From a virus (Duplodnaviria > Heunggongvirae > Uroviricota > Caudoviricetes): a stretch of 38,064 nucleotides of DNA. This document shows, in pieces, positions 16,244 through 38,064 of this stretch. The position numbers and the translations under genes were made by a program. The DNA lies in IMG/VR virus record IMGVR_UViG_2526164598_000023; one strand, 5' to 3'. Below the pieces are notes generated by a model, which had not been told where the DNA came from, did no database searches, and saw only the letters and a program-made list of their open reading frames with translations. Position 1 is the stretch's first letter, and every line of letters begins with the position of its first letter.

Positions 16244-17359
16244 TTACAGGCAGCGTGCGACAGCAGCCTCATAGCTGATGCCTTCTTTTTTGGACAGGGC
16301 CACTGCTTTCTGATGCAGGGCCAGACGCTCAGGATCGGCTTCCGCAAACTCTGCCACATCCACCTTCACCGTGTCGCCGACACGCTCTTTTGTGGCCTGT
16401 TCGGCGAAATTCATCACCGGCTCCCCGTCGGAGAGCAATGAACGAAAGGCGGTGGCCAGCGGTGTGCGGCTTTCCCCCTCAGCAAACTCCACCGGCTTGT
16501 CGCCACCGGCGACGGCATCCAGCAGGGCAACCACCACGGAGGAGGCGCGGGGAGCCAGACGGCCCTCTGCGACCAGTTTTTCTGCAAAGGCCACATTGTC
16601 CTTATGCAGTTGCTCCTGTCTGACCTGTGCATCACGCGCATCGCGATCAGCAGCCTGCTGCTTCAGGCGGCGGTTCTCCTCCTGAAGGGCTTCAATCTCT
16701 TCTTTTGTCATCGATGATTCCTCGTTACTTGCGGAAGACGGCACCTGGCCTGTCTCACTGAATTGCGCACCTGCTGCATCCTGCGACGGTGTGTCGCGGT
16801 ACGCCTCTTCGCGCAGATTGTTGAGCTGCCATTCCGGCAGGACTTTTTCTGCTTCGTCCAGACTGAAGCGGGCGATCAGAAAATCGCGCAGCTTTCCCCA
16901 CAGGGAGGCATTCGTGATGGCCTGCCAGTCGGCGAACTCCACCACACCTTCTTCCTGCTCACTGAAGGACACCTGTTTCAGCCCCTTGACGGAAGGTGGC
17001 TGTGCCCCGAGAAAGCCCACATGGCGCAGGTAGAGCACGCCGGGCTTCGGATTGGACGGTGAATCCGGGAGGTAGAAAGAGGCGGACACTTTTTTGAATC
17101 GTCCGTCGGTGACCATCTCAGCAAACTGCGGGTCCAGCTGGGCAGGCTCTGCCATCAGATCGACGCCGCTGAGCGACAGGGCTTTCACCCAGCCCCACGC
17201 CGGGTCTTCCGTTCTGGGATGACCAATCACGAGTGGTGCTTCATGGACGGACGGGTCATAGGCTTTCACGCAGGCGGCAAGATCGTCTGGCGTGAACGGC
17301 AGTTTTTTGCCGTGCATATCGGTATGAGTACCGGCTTTAAAAATGTGAATGGCTGACAT
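16244..17359 (-). CDS. Head maturation protease / scaffold (Mu I-like), 371 aa
   Basis: N-terminal domain followed by an acidic, coiled-coil-like C-terminal part (EEIEALQEENRRLKQQAADRDARDAQVRQEQ). Confidence 0.65.
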   Translation of the reverse strand: MSAIHIFKAGTHTDMHGKKLPFTPDDLAACVKAYDPSVHEAPLVIGHPRTEDPAWGWVKALSLSGVDLMAEPAQLDPQFAEMVTDGRFKKVSASFYLPDSPSNPKPGVLYLRHVGFLGAQPPSVKGLKQVSFSEQEEGVVEFADWQAITNASLWGKLRDFLIARFSLDEAEKVLPEWQLNNLREEAYRDTPSQDAAGAQFSETGQVPSSASNEESSMTKEEIEALQEENRRLKQQAADRDARDAQVRQEQLHKDNVAFAEKLVAEGRLAPRASSVVVALLDAVAGGDKPVEFAEGESRTPLATAFRSLLSDGEPVMNFAEQATKERVGDTVKVDVAEFAEADPERLALHQKAVALSKKEGISYEAAVARCL

Positions 17360-17573
17360 TTTGCTGTCCCGCGTTATGTTGTCGGAGACAGTTTGTGAGA
17401 AATGCAGGCCCGGCGATTTTAATCTGCTTTAGAAAACATCAGGGGAGAAGGACAGGGAAAGCAATACGGTGAACCGGAGGCGGTTATAAAACAGAGGCTG
17501 TAAAGCCTTTATAAAGGTAATACAGCCCCTCATTCGCTGGCAATGATAAATCACCCGCCTGAAGAGAGAAAAC

Positions 17574-23754: not shown

Positions 23755-24472
23755 AACTGCTGCCTCCCCATGTGAGATATCGCGGTGCCAGTTCGCGCAG
23801 GATGCGCTGCGGATAATGGCGGTTCTCCCGCCAGCTGGCCGCATTGCGTCCGGCATTCACCGTGGCGACATGTCCGAACCAGCGGGTGCTGTCCAGACCT
23901 TTCTGTGATGCAAGCCGCCTGTCCCGTTGTACCCAGCCCAGACCACCGTTATAGCCCGACAGTGTCATGGCCATACGCTCGCAGTCACTGGCGGCGCTGA
24001 CACGCTGCCACAGCCAGCGGTCATAGCTGACCAGCGCCCGGATAGCCCATGCCGGATTAAACGGCTCACGACTGCTCAGCATCGGTATCAACTGGCTTAT
24101 CCAGTCGGCAGTGGCAGGCATGAACTGCGCCAGTCCCTGAGCGCCAGCCGGCGAGATCGCATCAGGTCGCCAGCCGCTTTCCTGATGCAGTTGCGCGGCG
24201 AAATCGGCCACCGGCGCAGACAGTCCCCATTCAAGCCGGGCATTACGGATCACATCATCGCGATACTGCAGCGCAGCCTGCGGGGGCTGCGCTGCGCATG
24301 CCTGGCTGAAAAAGCCGCCACACCAGAGCAGCCAGACAATCACCAGGTTGCCAGCAAGCTGCCACCAGAAGCTGTATTTATCGTTACGTGGTTCTCCGTG
24401 TCTGATGGCGGTTACGCCCAGACCAAAGGCGAACAGAATAATGAGGGTGATTTGAGGCCAGTTCATGGTCAC
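23738..24472 (-). CDS. Lytic transglycosylase (SLT domain) endolysin with N-terminal membrane anchor, 244 aa
   Basis: Two N-terminal hydrophobic helices followed by an SLT-type catalytic region with QLHQESGW and AQGLAQFMPATA. Confidence 0.8.
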   Translation of the reverse strand: MTMNWPQITLIILFAFGLGVTAIRHGEPRNDKYSFWWQLAGNLVIVWLLWCGGFFSQACAAQPPQAALQYRDDVIRNARLEWGLSAPVADFAAQLHQESGWRPDAISPAGAQGLAQFMPATADWISQLIPMLSSREPFNPAWAIRALVSYDRWLWQRVSAASDCERMAMTLSGYNGGLGWVQRDRRLASQKGLDSTRWFGHVATVNAGRNAASWRENRHYPQRILRELAPRYLTWGGSSCAASG

Positions 24473-24819
24473 AGTCCTGTTGCCACAGCCAGGCAGACCG
24501 CTGCAACAATCAGTGCACGGCGGATTAACGCAGCAGAAAACACCAGGTGAAGGCCGGTCTGTACCGGGAAACGCCCTTCAGCCATCAGCCTGTCGTCATG
24601 TTTCAGGTACTGACCGGGACGGGCTTTGGGGAAGAGCGAACGGTCAAGCCAGTAACCCAGCACTGCTGCCAGCGTGATAAGTGCCAGCTTGTAGATCACA
24701 ACAGGCAACTGCTGTGGCGAGACCAGAGCGATGATGCCCAGCAACAGCACTGAGGTCAGCAGCCAGCCGCTGAGGCGAGGTTTTTTAACAGGGGGAATGA
24801 ATTTTTTCAGGTTTTTCAT
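24469..24819 (-). CDS. Putative holin, three predicted TM segments, 116 aa
   Basis: Start placed at ATG 24817-24819 (MKNLKKF...) with AGGAG RBS; the stop overlaps the endolysin start by 4 nt. Confidence 0.4.
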   Translation of the reverse strand: MKNLKKFIPPVKKPRLSGWLLTSVLLLGIIALVSPQQLPVVIYKLALITLAAVLGYWLDRSLFPKARPGQYLKHDDRLMAEGRFPVQTGLHLVFSAALIRRALIVAAVCLAVATGL

Positions 24820-24933
24820 GTGTGTCTCCTCGTTTGGTGGAGACAGCATCACAAATGTGGCGGGATACGGATTTTAAACAGCGTTAATAGTGAAGATGTA
24901 AACGTGCACTGCATGATGACTTTGAAAGAACGA

Positions 24934-24961
24934 CCAGCCCGGTACCCGAACACCGGGCTGG
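24934..24961 (-). terminator. GC-rich stem-loop (10-bp stem, 8-nt loop), possible insulator/terminator upstream of the late operon
   Basis: CCAGCCCGGT-acccgaac-ACCGGGCTGG; on the minus strand it is followed by TCGTTCTTTC. Confidence 0.3.
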
Positions 24962-25007
24962 CCATCGCCCCACAGGAATGCGCTGTGAGCCGACCGAGGT
25001 TCAGTCA

Positions 25008-25019
25008 GTCTCGCGAGAC
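25008..25019. promoter_or_regulatory. Perfect 12-bp palindrome GTCTCGCGAGAC upstream of the methyltransferase gene
   Basis: Self-complementary 12-mer about 48 nt upstream of the ATG at 25067; TATAAT hexamer at 25042-25047. Confidence 0.25.
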
Positions 25020-25066
25020 CAGACTAGCCTGCCATATTTTTTATAATTGTAAAAGGCTTACAGATT

Positions 25067-25837
25067 ATGAAAATGCAGACATTACCCATCGTTCCATGGA
25101 TTGGTGGCAAACGCCGCCTTGCAAAACACATCCTGCCGCTGTTTCCGGCGCATGAATGTTATGTGGAGCCGTTTTGTGGGGCAGCAGCGCTCTATTTTCT
25201 TAAGGTACCCGGCAAGATCGAAGTCATTAATGATATCAACGGTGAACTGGTGAACCTGTATCGGGTGGTAAAACATCATCTGGAAGAATTTGTACGCCAG
25301 TTCAAATGGGCGCTGGTCAGCCGGCAGATCTACAAATGGCTGCAGATCACCCCGGAAGAAACACTGACGGATATCCAGCGTGCAGCACGGTTCTACTACC
25401 TTCAGAAGCAGGCGTTTGGAGGCAAGGTGGCGGAGCACAGCTTTGGTACCTCCACCATATCCCCGCCACGCTTCAACCTGCTGCGTATTGAAGAAGAACT
25501 GTCAGCGGCACACCTGCGGCTTTCCAGAACGGTCATAGAACACATGGACTGGCAACAGTGCATAGAACGATATGATCGCCCGCATACGTTGTTCTACTGT
25601 GACCCTCCATACTGGGGAACGGAAGGTTATGGTGTGGAGTTCGGACTAGAAAATTATGATCATATGGCAGATTTAGCACGCAGGATCAAAGGGAAGATGA
25701 TTATATCGGTGAACGATATCCCGGAAATGCGGCAGGCATTCAACGGTCTAAATATTCAGTCGGTTGATATCAGCTACAACCTCAAGATCACTGGCAAATC
25801 CAGTCGCAAGAAGGAACTCATTATCCTCAACTTTTGA
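25067..25837 (+). CDS. N6-adenine DNA methyltransferase, Dam-like, orphan (no adjacent restriction endonuclease), 256 aa
   Basis: AdoMet motif EPFCGAAALYF near the N-terminus and catalytic DPPY (YCDPPYWGTEGYG). Confidence 0.85.
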   Translation: MKMQTLPIVPWIGGKRRLAKHILPLFPAHECYVEPFCGAAALYFLKVPGKIEVINDINGELVNLYRVVKHHLEEFVRQFKWALVSRQIYKWLQITPEETLTDIQRAARFYYLQKQAFGGKVAEHSFGTSTISPPRFNLLRIEEELSAAHLRLSRTVIEHMDWQQCIERYDRPHTLFYCDPPYWGTEGYGVEFGLENYDHMADLARRIKGKMIISVNDIPEMRQAFNGLNIQSVDISYNLKITGKSSRKKELIILNF

Positions 25838-27032
25838 CCGAATAGTAAGACTTCATGCAGTGAATCAAGTACTGCATGAAGTCAAGGGCTGGTTTTGTGT
25901 ACCAAAAATAAACAGTGATAGCGGTAATAATTCCCATAACTAGAACACCACGTATAATCCAGAACGTACGTTTCTGCGTGTCTAGTCGCGCAGAAATACT
26001 GCTAAATACACCAGCCACGTCATCTTTAATGAAGGAATATTCCTTATTAATCTGTTTTTCTTTGTATTCAATTTCTTCGCCTAAGGCCTTTATAGATTGC
26101 ATCTGGTTCGAAAGTGCCAGCCAGATTAACGTTGCAGCAAAAATGCATCCCAGAAGAATTATTGTGTTTGTTATCCCTTGGCCTGACCATTTCGTAGCCA
26201 CTTTGAATTGGGTAGCTACGATAACAGAGGCAACAGGAATGCCAAGTATATGGTTCTGGATATCTGAAAACGCTTTGTGGATTTTACCCATTTCTTCGAC
26301 TTTTGCAGCACGCAGTTGATCCATTACTTTGTCATAAGAGAATCCAGAAGAGTAGATACGATACCCTTTCAGAAACTTTTCATGCAGACGCTGAATATTG
26401 TCCAGTAAATAAGCGAATACTAGAGGTGAATCAATTCCATCACTAACTGCTTGGATACTTTCAATCAGAATATCTAGCTTCTGATCCTTATGGGTATCAT
26501 CATTGAAACAAGCTATAAGGTTATCAAGATACTCTCTTTGCAAATTTTGTACATTTTCTGCAGCGAAGTGCGGTAATAGCTTGATAACTTCTTTTTTCAG
26601 AAAAACTAACTGACAAGTTGAGTTATCAAAGTAGGCCGCGGCCTCTTTTAGCAGGTTAACGAACTCGAGAATCTTCCGGTAGTTGCTGATGAAAACGGGG
26701 ATATCTTCATCATCATTACGAAACTTTGTTTCTAGGATGAAGTAATTAGCTGGCTCAAGGCACTGATGCTTTGGAGCATTTAGCAATTTTTCATGGGTGG
26801 AAAACACAAGTCCCAGTCCACTCCGTGGTGACGTCACACGTAGGATGATCGTGTTACCTGGAGCGATAGTGCCTGTATCAATAGAAAGACCATATTCACG
26901 AGGATCATCAAGCAAAGTATCAACCAGATCACAATCGGACTGATCTAAGAGCAACAGCGAACCGACACGAAACCCCTCTTGGAATTCCATACGACGATAC
27001 AGATCTGTCAGCATCTCAAATGAAATCGCCAC
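25827..27032 (-). CDS. Membrane protein with soluble N-terminal domain and two C-terminal TM helices, 401 aa
   Basis: GTG start at 27030-27032 two nt after the upstream stop, with a GAGG RBS (alternative ATG at 27014). TM helices ITNTIILLGCIFAATLIWLALS and FWIIRGVLVMGIITAITVYFWY; AT-rich codon usage. Confidence 0.65.
   Translation of the reverse strand: MAISFEMLTDLYRRMEFQEGFRVGSLLLLDQSDCDLVDTLLDDPREYGLSIDTGTIAPGNTIILRVTSPRSGLGLVFSTHEKLLNAPKHQCLEPANYFILETKFRNDDEDIPVFISNYRKILEFVNLLKEAAAYFDNSTCQLVFLKKEVIKLLPHFAAENVQNLQREYLDNLIACFNDDTHKDQKLDILIESIQAVSDGIDSPLVFAYLLDNIQRLHEKFLKGYRIYSSGFSYDKVMDQLRAAKVEEMGKIHKAFSDIQNHILGIPVASVIVATQFKVATKWSGQGITNTIILLGCIFAATLIWLALSNQMQSIKALGEEIEYKEKQINKEYSFIKDDVAGVFSSISARLDTQKRTFWIIRGVLVMGIITAITVYFWYTKPALDFMQYLIHCMKSYYSVKS
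25849..25883. repeat. Perfect 13-bp inverted repeat with 9-nt spacer
   Basis: GACTTCATGCAGT-gaatcaagt-ACTGCATGAAGTC, 12 nt past the methyltransferase stop and inside the last codons of the convergent 401-aa gene, at the boundary where composition becomes AT-rich. Confidence 0.7.
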
Positions 27033-27034
27033 GA

Positions 27035-28042
27035 TTAAACCTCAGTCATCCACATTTCCCTAAATTCTTCAGGTACATTACGTAGGGTGATAATATTTGT
27101 TTCCGGATCATAATCAATATAGCCTTCAGTTTTCCCTTCCCGGTCAAACTTAAGTTCCCAATATTTAGACTTGCCTTTAAAAGATACCAGAGCCCGAATG
27201 ACTCGACCATCAGGAACGAAGCCATCCGATAACTCCAACTCTTCAGCAGCAAGTTTACCAGATAACTCCTCGGGAGCCTGGGGCCAAATGGCATTAACAA
27301 GGGTTTCAAGACTAAGTGGTTCACCAGCCTTACTTAGTGCATGTAAGTGTTCAAACGCACTCTTAAGAAATGCATCTTTTTCAGCGCCGTCAAGTCCTTT
27401 CTCTGCCGCAAATGCTTTTAAAACGTCACGTAACTTTTCAGACTCTCGTTTGGCGATTAAGACATCATTACAGCCGAGGAACTGTTTAAAATAGTTTGAA
27501 ACATTACCTTGCCCCTTAAGAAAACTGATATAGCGCTCTGCGCCACTTTCCCACGCGGTTAAGTCAATGCGCCCAGCCATACGCAGCTTAGCAATATCAA
27601 GATAGGTACTATCTTGGATGTTAAAATCATCTGTGACAGTGGATCCAATGGTAGCGCTTACAATAGCTATCAACAGGTGTTCATTGTGTCCTATCACGAT
27701 ATTTGCAAAAAGAACATAACCACCAGTAGCCATGTTTTCTCGCTGAGAACGTTCCGTCAGGTGATGCATCATTCGGCAGGAACTTTGGTAGAAATCATCA
27801 ACACCTTCGAGAAAGTCCCCAGCCATTCGTTCCATAGGATAGTTATCCGTATCGCCTTCAAAATAGCCATAACCTTTACCTGTGCGTCCTGCATATTTTG
27901 CACAAATATCGTTTATAAGGCGCTGGGAGGCTTCAGTAACTAGACCTTCTTCAGGACTCAATCTCTCAGAAGCGTCTCCATTTTGTTGTTTGTCTAAAAT
28001 GTGAACTACAACGTGTTTAACTTCAATGGTCTGCTCAGACAT
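27035..28042 (-). CDS. NdpA/YejK-like nucleoid-associated protein homologue, 335 aa
   Basis: Segments GGYVLFANI..HLLIAIVS, YLDIAKLRMAGRIDLTAWESGAERYISFLKGQ and the C-terminal YIDYDPETNIITLRNVP resemble E. coli YejK as I remember it; same length (335 aa). ATG 28040-28042 with AAGGTGGA RBS. Confidence 0.65.
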   Translation of the reverse strand: MSEQTIEVKHVVVHILDKQQNGDASERLSPEEGLVTEASQRLINDICAKYAGRTGKGYGYFEGDTDNYPMERMAGDFLEGVDDFYQSSCRMMHHLTERSQRENMATGGYVLFANIVIGHNEHLLIAIVSATIGSTVTDDFNIQDSTYLDIAKLRMAGRIDLTAWESGAERYISFLKGQGNVSNYFKQFLGCNDVLIAKRESEKLRDVLKAFAAEKGLDGAEKDAFLKSAFEHLHALSKAGEPLSLETLVNAIWPQAPEELSGKLAAEELELSDGFVPDGRVIRALVSFKGKSKYWELKFDREGKTEGYIDYDPETNIITLRNVPEEFREMWMTEV

Positions 28043-28520: not shown

Positions 28521-28539
28521 TTGAACATATCTCAATTTG

Positions 28540-28559
28540 ACACACTCATTTGGGTGTGT
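28540..28559. promoter_or_regulatory. Candidate operator dyad ACACAC-N8-GTGTGT in the repressor/ner divergent region
   Basis: 6-bp inverted arms separated by 8 nt, centred between the two divergent starts. Confidence 0.3.
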
Positions 28560-28608
28560 ACAATAGACCCAATAGAGTACATCATAACCTAACAGGAACA
28601 CGGTGCAT

Positions 28609-29148: not shown

Positions 29149-30060
29149 ATGGGACGCACCAAATCACCGGTTAGCACTGAACTGAACGTCGAGGTACCGC
29201 TGTCGGATGATCTCAATGTCAGTCTAAACGCCATGACACAGCATCGCATGGAAATCATGCAACAGTTCGGCGATGGTCTGCCCTATGAGCGCGATCGTGT
29301 TGTCCATGAGGCACGCTTTTATATGGCACAGAGCGCTGAGGCCATGCTGGAGGCAGGTAAGCGGCTGATAATCCTTAAGGAAAATGAACCACACGGGGAG
29401 TTTATAAAGATTCTTGAAAGTGAGTTGGGGCTGGCATACCGGACATCTGTGAGAATGATGCAAGCATCGACAAAATACTTATCCCCGGCGCTGAAACCAA
29501 ATGTGCCAACGTTGGCACATTTGGGAAAAGCCAAACTTTTCGAATTAATGACAGAAGACGACGAAGAGCTTGCCGAACTGGCCGACGGCGGCACAGTTGC
29601 CGGCCTGACGCTTGACGACGTTGATCGCATGTCAGTACGTGAATTGCGTCAGGCCCTGCGCGAAGCGCGCGAAACCAACGCAGCACAACAGCGCGTACTC
29701 GCTGACAAAAATGAAAAAATAGACTCACTCTCCACCAGACTGGAGAAGAAATCCCGTATTCAGCCGCCTGAGCCTGATGAAGAGGTTAAGAAGCTGCGGG
29801 CGGAAGTGACAGCATTAGCGGTTGAGGCGGAATCTGCTATCGCCGTTCGACTGTCCAGCGCTTTTGAGACGCTGTGCGCATATTGTGCTGAAAACATGAT
29901 TGATACCCCCAGAGACTTCATGGCAGGCCTGGTCTGTCAACTGGAAAGCACAGCGCGTAGCCTGCGCTCCACATTTGACCTGCCGGATGAGCCAACAGGC
30001 AATGCCGCGCCTTCATGGCTGACTGAGCCGACGCCACAGATTAACGGGCTGGAGGCATAA
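29149..30060 (+). CDS. Hypothetical protein, 303 aa
   Basis: ORF between the wHTH gene and the transposase; no recognised catalytic motif. Confidence 0.5.
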   Translation: MGRTKSPVSTELNVEVPLSDDLNVSLNAMTQHRMEIMQQFGDGLPYERDRVVHEARFYMAQSAEAMLEAGKRLIILKENEPHGEFIKILESELGLAYRTSVRMMQASTKYLSPALKPNVPTLAHLGKAKLFELMTEDDEELAELADGGTVAGLTLDDVDRMSVRELRQALREARETNAAQQRVLADKNEKIDSLSTRLEKKSRIQPPEPDEEVKKLRAEVTALAVEAESAIAVRLSSAFETLCAYCAENMIDTPRDFMAGLVCQLESTARSLRSTFDLPDEPTGNAAPSWLTEPTPQINGLEA

Positions 30061-35828: not shown

Positions 35829-36270
35829 ACAACGTCTTATCCAGCTCATTCATATTGCCCGTAATGAACTGGGTATGGATGAAGACACCTACCGCCAGAT
35901 GTTACAGGGGCTGACCGGTAAAGCCTCAACCAAAGGAATGGATACCACACAACTAAACTGCGTGCTGGAATCCATGAAAAGGAAAGGCTTTCGCGTTAAG
36001 CCTGCCAGAAAAGCCAGCTCCGGTTTACCGCTGGATAACCATCCGCAGTCCAGGAAAATCCGTGCGCTATGGCTTGAAATGGCTGCTGCCGGCATTGTTC
36101 GTGACCGTTCAGAAAATGCATTAGCGCGGTGGATCAAGCGGGAAACGGGCATCAGCGCCCTGCGCTGGCTCAATACTGAACAGGCAAGCAGTGTTATTGA
36201 GAAACTGAAGAAGTGGCAGCACAGAGCTGCGGGAGTAAAACATGAGCGACCTGAATCAGTTTCGAAGTAA
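35818..36270 (+). CDS. gemA: GemA-like regulatory protein, 150 aa
   Basis: MMTKQRLIQLIHIARNELGMDEDTYRQMLQGLTGKAST resembles Mu GemA; GGAG RBS. Confidence 0.65.
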   Translation: MMTKQRLIQLIHIARNELGMDEDTYRQMLQGLTGKASTKGMDTTQLNCVLESMKRKGFRVKPARKASSGLPLDNHPQSRKIRALWLEMAAAGIVRDRSENALARWIKRETGISALRWLNTEQASSVIEKLKKWQHRAAGVKHERPESVSK

Positions 36271-36631
36271 AGGGCCGGAACTCCTGGTGGAACTGGCACA
36301 GCATACCTCTGAGACCGTTCGCGAGATTATTGATATTGAGCCCGCAATTGCCGACCAGATTGGTCAGGCCGTCGCGAACCGCATGATGCAGGTCTGGGGC
36401 GGGCAAAACGTTTATTTCCCGATGGGCATGGTATGGAAGGTCAGTCAGCGCGACCGGGAAATCTTCAGGGAGTTTAACGGACGTAACCACCATGAACTGG
36501 CCCGCAAATTTGGTGTTTCGCTTCAGTGGGTCTACAGCGTGGTTAAGCGGGTAAGAAAAGAAGAACTGGATCGGATGCAGGGCAAGCTATTTGCTGATGA
36601 ACCCGATGTAGATACGGAGAAAAAAGAGTAA
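36242..36631 (+). CDS. mor: Mor/C-family transcription activator, 129 aa
   Basis: Same length as Mu Mor; C-terminal HTH ELARKFGVSLQWVYSVVKR; GGGAG RBS. Confidence 0.8.
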   Translation: MSDLNQFRSKGPELLVELAQHTSETVREIIDIEPAIADQIGQAVANRMMQVWGGQNVYFPMGMVWKVSQRDREIFREFNGRNHHELARKFGVSLQWVYSVVKRVRKEELDRMQGKLFADEPDVDTEKKE

Positions 36632-36659
36632 TATCTGCAATCAGGCTGGAGCGAGTTCT

Positions 36660-36792
<133 letters not shown>

Positions 36793-36819
36793 CAGAAATG
36801 TCGGATAAGGCACCGCTGA

Positions 36820-38064
36820 TTACTGATACACCGGCAGTAAATTAAAGCTCGATAAAATATGGACCAGTGCGTTGCCAACGCCAAACACCAGAATCAGCGT
36901 AATCATCGGCTTGCCGCCCCAGACGCGGAATTTCGGGCTGCCAAAGCGTTTACGCGATGCGCGGGCTAACAGCGCCGGAACAATTGCCGCCCAGATGGTA
37001 GCTGCTAAACCAGCATAACCAATGGCGTACAGGAATCCGTTCGGGAACAGTAGACCACCCACAACAGGCGGGGCAAAGGTCAGCAATGCCGTTTTCAAGC
37101 GCCCCAGGGCTGAGTCATCGAAACCAAACAGATCTGCCAGATAGTCAAACAAACCCAGCGTTACGCCAAGGAACGAACTCGCTACCGCAAAGTTTGAGAA
37201 CACGACCAGCAGAAGGTCCAGGCTACGGCTGTTCAGCACGCCGCTTAATGCCTGTACCAGCACATCAATATTACCGCCCTTCTCTGCAATACCGATAAAC
37301 TCCGGACGCGGGATGTTACCCATCGTCGCCAGCAACCAGATGGTATACAGCGCCAGTGCCATCAGCGTACCGTACACCAGGCATTTCACGATGGTTTTCG
37401 GATCTTTGCCGTAATACTTCATCAGGCTTGGCACGTTACCGTGATAACCAAACGACGCCAGGCAGAACGGCAATGTCATCAGCAGATACGGCGCATAAGA
37501 TGCATTGCTTTCTGCAACGTTGAACAATGTCGCAGGCTGCACATGCCCCAACAGGCTGCCAAAGGTGAGGAAGAAGGTAATGACTTTCGCCCCCAGCACA
37601 ATCGCCGTCATGCGGCTGACGGCCTTAGTACTCAACCACACCACAAACGCTACCAGCAGTGCAAAACCAAAACCCGCCGCCCGTGCCGGGACGTTTAGCG
37701 ACATCTCTGCGAAGGTGTGATGCAGAATTGAACCACTGGCAGAAATATAGGCATAGGTCAGGATATAGAGCACAAAGGCAATGGAAATACCGTTGACCAC
37801 GTTCCAGCCTTTGCCCAGCAAATCTTTGGTGATGGTGTCAAAACTCGAACCGATTCGGTAATTCAGGTTAGCTTCCAGAATCATCAAGCCGGAATGCAGC
37901 ATACAGAACCAGGTAAAGATCAGCGCCGCCATTGACCAGAAAAACCACGCCCCGGACATGACCACTGGCAGAGAAAACATCCCTGCGCCAATAATGGTGC
38001 CGCCGATAATCACCACGCCGCCAAGCAGCGACGGTGACGTTTGGGTGGTGGTTAGTGTTGCCAT
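36820..38064 (-). CDS. mtr: Tryptophan-specific transport protein Mtr (host gene, complete, 414 aa)
   Basis: Translation [43 protein letters not shown]... matches E. coli Mtr; ATG is the last three bases of the window. Confidence 0.95.

Follow-up and report, generated by a model that had tools for sequence, protein, structure and literature searches.

A predicted Mor/C-type two-way promoter joined to a candidate dam-linked antisense unit in the holin-dam gap of a Mu-like prophage of Escherichia coli

The gap between the holin gene and the dam methylase gene was analysed in a Mu-like transposable prophage of Escherichia coli (IMG/VR virus record IMGVR_UViG_2526164598_000023; "the window" is the whole stretch of 38,064 nucleotides). 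The interval 24820-25066 (247 bases) is exactly the holin-dam intergenic region. Judged from its sequence, and with a probability of about 0.5, it is a composite of a two-way late promoter that depends on a Mor/C-type activator (module A) and an antisense unit that travels with dam (module B). The first-pass annotation had described the interval as a structured divergent control region upstream of the late operon. The features on which it relied are real, but a better description of the region is a two-way late promoter of Mor type, to which an antisense unit linked to dam is joined. The probable late promoter (24845-24888), a leader hairpin that pairs with the ribosome-binding site (RBS) of holin and the use of the gap as an insertion site for cargo genes had gone unmentioned.

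The region was gathered from annotated E. coli genomes and phages, together with 80 IMG/VR contigs reached through holin and 39 genome contigs reached through a DNA pattern. Forty-six distinct Enterobacterales sequences make up alignment A1, from which the covariance model R1 was built. The complement of the dam ribosome-binding region, GTAAGCCTTTT, is almost invariant in 46 distinct relatives and was the anchor of the genome-wide pattern scan.

The promoter region beside holin

The holin-side half of the gap (24820-24920, module A) is predicted to be a Mor/C-type activator-dependent two-way promoter region. Its elements, and those elsewhere in the window that bear on it, are as follows.

24873-24888 (centre 24880.5), no strand: 16-bp dyad of Mor/C type, ATTAA-CGCTGT-TTAAA in the minus-strand reading, arms complementary at 4/5 positions
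24853-24845, minus strand: predicted late (holin) -10 element TG-T-GATGCT, hexamer 24850-24845, a conserved block at fixed spacing
24912-24917, plus strand: predicted dam -10 element CATGAT, a hexamer at fixed distance from the dyad
24824-24845, minus strand: leader hairpin in which UGUCUCC (24845-24839) pairs with GGAGACA (24830-24824), the holin Shine-Dalgarno sequence included; holin ATG at 24819
17384-17433, minus strand: second predicted late promoter, with TCTAA-AGCAGA-TTAAA (17433-17418), -10 CAAACT (17395-17390) and CTGTCTCC (17391-17384)
36242-36631, plus strand: gene of the Mor-family activator (PF08765, E = 1.3e-43)

Mor/C sites are 16 bp long, consist of two 5-bp inverted repeats around a G/C-rich 6-bp spacer and are centred at -43.5 of promoters that have a -10 but no -35 element (PMC4390567, PMC2582627, PMC4287176). 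The dyad fits the published format of a Mor site as defined in PMC4390567, and the same phage encodes a Mor-family protein, which is 37% identical to Mu C over 79 residues. The dyad is found once in the window (0.00 expected). In the relative L004 it is identical at 16/16 positions, against 68% identity in the spacer and 54% at the third-codon positions of dam. The variants CTTAA-CGCGCT-TTAAA and TCTAA-AGCAGA-TTAAA also occur.

The conserved blocks on the minus strand are, in order, the dyad, a 19-nt spacer of fixed length and variable sequence, TGTGATGCT (24853-24845) and CTGTCTCC. The late hexamer varies among GATGCT, CATGCT, AATGAT and AAAACT, with A2 and T6 always kept, and in each variant the two sides of the dyad both have an nAnnnT hexamer at the 31st or 32nd nucleotide. 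In the window GATGCT starts at the 31st nucleotide from the dyad centre, which is the distance also found for 17395-17390 at the second late promoter. The late start is predicted at A24838, and the dyad centre would then lie at -42.5. The composite pattern TTAAAA-N20-32-TGTYTCC has two matches in the window, both intergenic on the minus strand (0.03 expected). There is thus good sequence evidence that the late-promoter signature of the prophage family has been identified, and we infer that Mor binds to it. At the level of sequence the predicted late promoter conforms to the family of Mu Pm and Plys, like which it would work. The hexamer TAAAAT (24876-24871) had been considered as the late -10 element and was rejected, since the conserved blocks, the fixed-length spacer and the second promoter place this element at 24850-24845.

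On the dam strand, a hexamer of the form CAnnnT lies at the 31st or 32nd nucleotide from the dyad centre in 50/50 distinct left-hand contexts (CATGAT, CATCCT, CATCAT, CACTCT, CATTCT, CAGGAT, CAGTAT and CAAGAT), while the intervening sequence differs between empty gaps and those that carry cargo genes. A Mor-dependent dam promoter divergent from the late promoter is predicted on this basis, with a start at about G24924 and the dyad at -43.5, though less strongly than the late promoter. Opposite the second late promoter (17384-17433), where there is no divergent gene, no hexamer of the CAnnnT type was found when the sequence was read by hand.

The holin leader has a folding energy of -12.3 kcal/mol. 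The arms of its hairpin seem to change in step in distant relatives: GGCTCCAT/ATGGAGGCC in L074, CTGTTTCC/GGAGACAG in L076 and GCTGTCTTC/GGAGACAGC in L174. The block CTGTCTCC and a downstream complement recur at the second late promoter, where the complement, GGGACAG, stands ahead of the ATG of a 371-aa gene (17359..16244). Assuming that the predicted starts are correct, the 5' arm lies just upstream of the late start, so that only read-through transcripts would form the hairpin that masks the holin RBS.

The gap is also a cargo insertion site, and the window has its empty form. The distance between holin and dam in relatives is either about 247 bp, as in the window, or 780-2292 bp with inserted genes. 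The inserts are mutually unrelated, 0.5-2 kb long and on the minus strand; they include a gene for a DUF2441 protein, genes for hypothetical proteins and two-gene sets. They always occupy one point, bracketed by two copies of the 16-bp dyad.

24889-24923, no strand: cargo insertion point (relatives L002, L003, L005, L007, L011, L015, L017, L028 and others)

In the cargo-bearing relatives one copy of the dyad stays at a constant distance from the terminator-like hairpin T described below and the other precedes holin. The cargo-side copies were considered as promoters of the cargo, but no consistent -10 element was found for them.

The antisense unit upstream of dam

The remainder of the gap (24921-25066) holds module B, whose elements are listed here with the start of dam.

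25020-24925, minus strand: predicted antisense RNA of about 95 nt, made up of a palindromic hairpin, the linker GCCUCGG, hairpin P2, the linker GCGAUGG and hairpin T
25031-25026, minus strand: antisense -10-like hexamer CAGGCT, family form TAnnnT
25048-25053, minus strand: -35-like TTTACA, 16 nt upstream of CAGGCT, read by eye, overlapping the complement of the dam Shine-Dalgarno sequence
25073-25046, minus strand: alternative promoter-like site TTTTCA-16-TACAAT, 9/12 in a promoter scan, with an RNA 5' end about 20 nt longer
25008-25019, no strand: perfect 12-bp palindrome GTCTCGCGAGAC, predicted to be the first 12 nt of the antisense RNA and/or an operator near +6.5
24969-24989, minus strand: hairpin P2, CUCACAG, a 7-nt variable loop and CUGUGGG
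24924-24966, minus strand: terminator-like hairpin T, extended stem 24966-24929, 16 pairs, -28.7 kcal/mol
24934-24943 and 24952-24961, no strand: stem-loop core CCAGCCCGGT / ACCGGGCTGG, a perfect 10-bp stem with an 8-nt loop
25051-25061, plus strand: dam ribosome-binding region AAAAGGCTTAC, AAGG at 25053-25056; dam ATG at 25067

The model R1 scores 170 bits in the window and gives one full-length match per locus at 71 loci, with E values from 1e-40 to about 0.6 (66/71 at or below 1e-5). Every match immediately precedes dam or com-dam in antisense orientation. The module is present, with dam genes of the same subfamily, in Enterobacterales prophages, in Vibrio phage VP882, in Burkholderia phage phiE125 and in Pseudomonas phage B3, where it precedes com-dam; the hosts reached by the pattern scan include Photorhabdus, Xenorhabdus, Serratia, Brenneria, Klebsiella and Erwinia. 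In most relatives the linkers read GCCUUGG and GGUUGA(U/C)G. The GCC core and the GG of the former are conserved above 88% and its two U at 72-89%, and GGUUGA is conserved as well. The segment GCCUU (GCCUC in the window) is complementary to AAGGC of the dam or com RBS.

The full module, with wholly different stems, was also seen in two contigs binned into metagenome-assembled genomes (MAGs) of distant gammaproteobacteria, L158 in a Francisella MAG and L170 in a Methylocaldum MAG, the bin labels being quoted as given. In Pseudomonas phages of the B3 type an open reading frame (ORF) for a zinc-finger protein like Mu Com lies between the module and dam (L195 1846-2031 and about 40 IMG/VR loci, L207-L252), and the module stands ahead of com at the same spacing to the com RBS.

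In the alignment derived from R1, 90.9% of the cells pair, against 64.4% after shuffling and 32-53% with slid partners, and 29/30 pairs have changed on both sides. Juxtapositions that pair only on the antisense strand (G·U) were counted against those that pair only on the sense strand (A·C). The ratio is 62:0 in P2, 107:43 in T and 12:3 at the apex of the palindrome; in the outer stem that flanks the apex it is 27:23. A conserved structure with covariation was thus found for the antisense strand, on a model-fitted alignment. Minimum free energy was rejected as a test of strand: the antisense strand folds better in 61/69 sequences (61:8; -53.7 versus -44.6 kcal/mol), and this is lost with composition-matched shuffles.

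The hairpin T had been noticed in the first-pass annotation as a 10-bp GC stem-loop (24934-24961) followed on the minus strand by a U-rich tract and so placed that transcription of the repressor-side operon would not read through into the lysis genes. The stem is perfect, and it is the sole noted element that exceeds chance by itself: Markov simulations predict 0.28 perfect 10-bp stems with loops of 3-8 nt for the window, which has them at 3 places. The strand was correctly guessed. The tail at 24933-24924 is TCGTTCTTTC, as RNA UCGUUCUUUC, with 6 U in 10 and a Kingsford-type score, calculated by hand, of -3.03; there is no U-rich tract beside T on the plus strand. T therefore has the stable GC-rich hairpin and the U-rich 3' tract of an intrinsic terminator. 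An automated terminator scan made no call at T because the stem extends into the tail. Among the 46 relatives 98.0% of the T cells pair on the minus strand as against 80.6% on the plus strand, with 7/15 pairs changed on both sides, and a pyrimidine-rich tail lies beyond T on the antisense strand only, in every lineage inspected. T resembles known intrinsic terminators in its GC-rich stem of 10-16 bp, its loop of 6-8 nt and its U-rich tail. It differs from them in that the tail is interrupted here and is pyrimidine-rich, not U-rich, in GC-rich hosts, and in that the tail GUCG(U/C)UCUU is conserved beyond what a simple U-tract needs.

The role proposed for T fits the geometry of this genome. The minus-strand genes at 28520-25827 run into the 3' end of dam, and no other terminator-like site was found on the minus strand between 25837 and 24961, so that T could stop antisense read-through before the lysis genes. 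Insulation of a divergent late operon is not, however, the general role of the module, because the genes upstream of it are co-directional with dam in VP882, phiE125 and B3. In B3 and VP882 the module begins immediately past the stop codon of the co-directional upstream gene, and at com-dam loci about 9 nt separate the TAnnnT hexamer from the com RBS. A sense message would therefore have to cross the module; in the window such a message is expected from the predicted dam promoter at 24912-24917.

The stems of P2 are invariant and its loop is hypervariable in Enterobacterales. Between lineages the stems covary, to CACATG/CATGTG in VP882 and to CACTG/CAGTG in Burkholderia phages.

The hexamer TAnnnT ends 12-14 nt before the palindrome centre in 61/69 distinct instances. 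It keeps T1, A2 and T6 but varies freely at positions 3-5 (TAGGCT, TAGAAT, TAGACT, TAAGAT and TAAACT are found elsewhere), which in terms of sequence is the signature of a sigma-70 -10 element. A start 7 nt past the hexamer would be the first base of the palindrome, and from this base to the end of T there are 89-96 nt in 63/64 instances. The -35-like position has TTTGCA or TTTTCA in Enterobacterales relatives, and -35-like elements were seen in Enterobacterales only. At the alternative upstream site the -10 position reads TGCAAT, TACAGT or TTCATT in relatives, TACAAT being specific to the clade. Two further candidates were rejected. GAAAAT (25041-25036) was superseded as the antisense -10 element by the hexamer next to the palindrome once the Burkholderia and Pseudomonas loci had been aligned, and the antisense transcript has a small ORF that lacks conservation and is disrupted by cargo insertions.

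The hexamer, the covariation, the G·U asymmetry and the constant length together suggest that the dam leader has a small antisense RNA of about 95 nt. A search of the segment 24300-25600 and of five loci including VP882 and phiE125 gave no match in Rfam 15 at E ≤ 1, and no tRNA or tmRNA was found. No published dam-linked antisense RNA was found; the primary study of VP882 small RNAs lay outside that literature search, so earlier detection there is possible. Tentatively, and at less than even odds, module B may represent a widespread but so far uncatalogued small-RNA family (about 95-100 nt) which is coupled to one Dam subfamily and controls Dam or Com-Dam by antisense pairing and convergent transcription. 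The family would span Mu-like, lambdoid and VP882-type phages of beta- and gammaproteobacteria, and its palindromic 5' end might dimerise or double as an operator.

The perfect 12-bp palindrome is present at 25008-25019, as previously reported, in a single copy in the window. By itself it is at chance level, since the window has 8 perfect 12-bp palindromes against about 10 expected. It is significant only because palindromy at that position is conserved across lineages: perfect palindromes of 10-16 bp and of differing sequence were found there in 61/69 instances, and the centre is always self-complementary (CGCG, CCGG, TCGA, ACGT, GCGC, TGCA or GTAC). The sequence GTCTCGCGAGAC is invariant in the E. 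coli-like clade, in which the repressor alleles range from 99% to about 22% identity or are not detectable; GTTCTCGAGAAC replaces it in a relative with a transposase of 99.5% identity. A role as immunity operator was rejected, as the palindrome is independent of the repressor allele and the early region has an inverted repeat of its own in TTGACA-16-TACAAT. A role as Mor site was rejected for either strand. The palindrome lacks the Mor/C format of 5-bp arms and a 6-bp spacer, there is no conserved -10 element at the required distance (on the late strand this position falls in the hypervariable P2 loop), and the palindrome is also found in non-Mu phages. The outer stem AGGCU/AGCCU was rejected as an RNA stem; it is 75% paired with no strand preference and is probably promoter DNA. 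The palindrome can be read in three ways: as an operator near +6.5 of the antisense promoter, as a means by which the RNA pairs with itself, or as the product of hairpin-templated mutation. The obligatory palindrome is the least explained trait of the region. In the Photorhabdus loci L155, L168, L175, L177, L178, L184 and L189 a 7-nt tandem duplication (ATCAATA ATCAATA) interrupts the palindrome, while P2, T and the late promoter are kept, and this clade is a natural test case for the role of the palindrome.

The TATAAT hexamer (25042-25047), pointed out earlier as lying ahead of the methyltransferase gene, exists, but it is probably not a conserved dam promoter. The window has 5 copies of TATAAT on the plus strand and 2 on the minus strand, which is chance level. 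The hexamer is specific to the clade, most relatives having ACTGAT or ATTGAT at this position, and a start about 7 nt past it (near 25054) would fall on or after the dam Shine-Dalgarno sequence AAGG. It lies within the spacer of the predicted antisense promoter.

Alternative readings and related systems

Several points weigh against the composite reading. The pair counts of alignment A2 lean towards the antisense strand, since A2 was fitted to a model that had been built in this orientation. Dinucleotide-shuffle z-scores (-3.09 versus -2.91) do not separate the strands, and the energy advantage of the antisense strand is largely G+T richness. CAGGCT matches TATAAT at 2/6 positions, a weak -10 element in the clade of the window. 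The T hairpin of B3 has a single wobble, counted by hand, on the sense strand. The self-complementary centre of the palindrome is not needed by an RNA hairpin, which keeps a reading as a DNA-level operator in play. As to module A, the cargo-side copies of the dyad lack a consistent -10 element on the late strand, the predicted late promoter has a TGn extension whereas Mu Pm is reported without an extended -10 element, and the assignment of Mu's own Mor site to GTTAA-TCCGGC-TTTTT is a tentative reading made in this analysis.

The model of the first-pass annotation taken alone, in which T only blocks read-through, Mor or the repressor binds the palindrome as its operator and TATAAT serves as the dam promoter, is unlikely. 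T and its tail are real, and the minus-strand genes do converge on dam, with an overlap at 25827-25837 and no further terminator-like site before T. However, VP882, phiE125 and B3 also have the unit of T, P2 and palindrome ahead of dam, with flanking genes that are co-directional; the palindrome is independent of the repressor allele and different in a relative with a near-identical early region, the dyad of Mor format lies elsewhere and TATAAT is not conserved. It is about as improbable that module B acts on the sense strand only, as a structured 5' leader or intercistronic element of the dam (com-dam) message that serves as a stabilising hairpin, a processing site or a translational gate, with no antisense RNA. 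Such an element would agree with B3 and VP882, where the module fills the space between the co-directional stop codon and the dam or com RBS, with structure z-scores that are equally strong on both strands and with a helix given by RNAalifold in which AGCCU, the complement of the -10-like hexamer, pairs with the RBS sequence AGGCU. Against it, the G·U to A·C ratios in P2 and T favour the antisense strand, pyrimidine-rich tails follow T on that strand only, and conservation of T1, A2 and T6 is expected of a sigma-70 -10 element and not of paired RNA.

Rather doubtful, though compatible with an antisense RNA, is the view that the palindrome is chiefly a DNA operator for a dimeric protein that controls overlapping back-to-back promoters. 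In nearly all lineages the central 4-6 bp are perfectly symmetric too, and close relatives differ by symmetric double substitutions, for example GCCTAGCTAGGC versus GCCTCGCGAGGC. The palindrome is centred near +6.5 of the predicted antisense promoter, which is a typical position for a repressor. Yet dam or com is the only gene consistently linked to the module and no DNA-binding gene is, the palindrome changes without a change in the early region, and the palindrome is best conserved at its centre and least in its flanks, whereas the reverse holds for typical helix-turn-helix (HTH) operators. Perfect palindromes can also arise by template-switch correction of hairpins. Least probable of all is that module B is a trans-acting small RNA which hitch-hikes beside dam and targets messages of the host or of other phages. 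The conserved single-stranded linkers GCCUUGG and GGUUGA and a terminator with a U-rich tail are compatible with such a function, and trans-acting phage small RNAs are known, such as VpdS in VP882, described as about 50 nt. In all lineages examined the linkage and orientation to dam or com-dam are nevertheless strict, a target common to hosts as different as Burkholderia, Vibrio and E. coli is unlikely, and the complementarity of GCCUU is to the RBS of dam or com itself.

According to the composite reading, the late and dam promoters would be silent in a lysogen without Mor, and the weak antisense promoter (-10 at 25031-25026) would yield an RNA that runs from the palindrome through P2 to T. 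T would also halt antisense transcripts that cross dam from the repressor and cargo operon, and any leakage past T would carry the holin-masking hairpin and be translationally silenced. Upon induction Mor, encoded at the end of the early operon, would accumulate and bind the dyads, and sigma-70 polymerase would start leftward at about 24838 to transcribe the lysis and late operon. The dyad at 24873-24888 would probably also permit a rightward dam start at about 24924, with a dam leader that would be the exact complement of the antisense RNA. Dam output would be set by convergent transcription and RNA pairing, the RNA acting as a cis-antisense on any dam transcript that enters from upstream.

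Module A has several traits of the Mor/C promoters of Mu (Pm, Plys, PI, PP and Pmom): a 16-bp dyad about 43 bp upstream of the predicted start, a -10 element without a usable -35, a Mor-family gene that closes the early operon, and a design that is repeated before late operons, with the lysis genes first. It differs in that, apart from the TGn extension, one dyad seemingly serves two divergent promoters, and in that there is a single Mor-family protein and no cascade from Mor to C. The dam side, as predicted, resembles the com-mom region of Mu in its logic, with a DNA-modification gene near the late region under a Mor/C-type activator and a post-transcriptional layer. Pmom has been reported with the divergent promoters momP1 and momP2, and a Com homologue is found in the B3-type relatives. 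The modification enzyme is here a D12 Dam-type methylase and not Mom, and the proposed regulator is an antisense RNA as against a zinc-finger RNA-binding protein. There is no com gene in the window, where about 35 nt separate the antisense -10 element from the dam ATG. The dam arrangement is not a member of the Mu com-mom system. The gap contains no GATC site in 24820-25066 (about 0.6 expected), so control of the Dam/OxyR type is not expected.

Of the cis-antisense and convergent switches, we take coliphage 186 pR/pL, P22 sar-ant, IS10 RNA-OUT and R1 CopA to be the closest. The likeness lies in the predicted face-to-face starts at 24924 and 25019, about 95 bp apart, and in a short structured RNA that is complementary to the leader and ends at a terminator. 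The perfect palindromic 5' end and the linkage to a methylase across unrelated phage types are different here, and the RNA is here a prediction from sequence. The gap also resembles the moron or cargo hot spots of phages, in that a single defined point receives unrelated genes and a different set stands between dam and the repressor gene; in contrast to them, the insertion point is flanked by duplicated activator dyads. The proposed RNA would fall among the cis-antisense regulators with convergent promoters, but no curated family matches it.

Genome context and implications

The prophage has genes for Mor, GemA, Gam, an rve-domain (DDE-type) transposase and, at the position of MuB, an AAA+ ATPase on the plus strand. 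The segment 24300-25300 is 100% identical to several E. coli chromosomes, and a related stretch was found in 636/5426 complete E. coli genomes. The genes are laid out as follows.

from about 28600, plus strand: early arm, with two small HTH genes, a DUF3102 gene and the genes of the rve-domain transposase, the AAA+ ATPase, Gam, GemA and the Mor-family activator
28520-25827, minus strand: repressor-side set, two cargo genes (25827-28042) and then a repressor-like HTH gene
25067-25837, plus strand: dam (D12 methylase), between the early and late arms
down from 24819, minus strand: late arm, with the genes of holin (PF13272), an SLT transglycosylase and spanin, followed by head and tail genes

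The divergence of the early and late arms from a central region is presumably the layout of BcepMu-type phages. The end of the prophage is seemingly just past the Mor gene, where 36632-36820 precedes a host membrane- or transporter-like gene on the minus strand (36820-38064).

A second variable slot is situated between dam and the repressor gene (25827-28042, minus strand), and relatives have other genes there. In the window it begins with the gene of a 401-aa protein that has a weak match to KwaA of the Kiwa defence system (E = 8e-5, 21 bits) and overlaps the 3' end of dam by 11 bp (25827-25837) in a convergent orientation. It is followed by the gene of a homologue of the 37-kDa nucleoid-associated protein (PF04245, E = 1e-80).

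Further structures were seen outside the gap. A near-consensus plus-strand promoter, TTGACA-16-TACAAT, precedes the early operon at 28537-28564, and the inverted repeat ACACAC-N8-GTGTGT (28540-28559) across its spacer is likely the immunity operator. A 28-bp perfect palindrome (CCAAATGTGCCAAC joined to GTTGGCACATTTGG) at 29497-29524 within the DUF3102 gene of the early operon is far above chance for the window. The SLT transglycosylase gene contains a perfect 11-bp GC-rich stem, GCAGCGCAGCC / GGCTGCGCTGC, with a 6-nt loop (24268-24295).

Phage Dam methylases bear on restriction evasion, on the expression of host genes and on the mutation rate, and their control in temperate phages is largely unknown beyond Mu com-mom. 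The late-promoter signature of these transposable prophages of E. coli has been predicted here, apparently for the first time as far as was found. The terminator and the hairpin that masks the holin RBS are predicted to form a fail-safe that would jointly silence the lysis genes in lysogens, and the defined cargo insertion site helps in mining prophages for defence genes. If the antisense reading is true, phages of E. coli, Klebsiella, Vibrio, Pseudomonas and Burkholderia would share a conserved and easily testable antisense regulator, which would be a candidate for an Rfam family.

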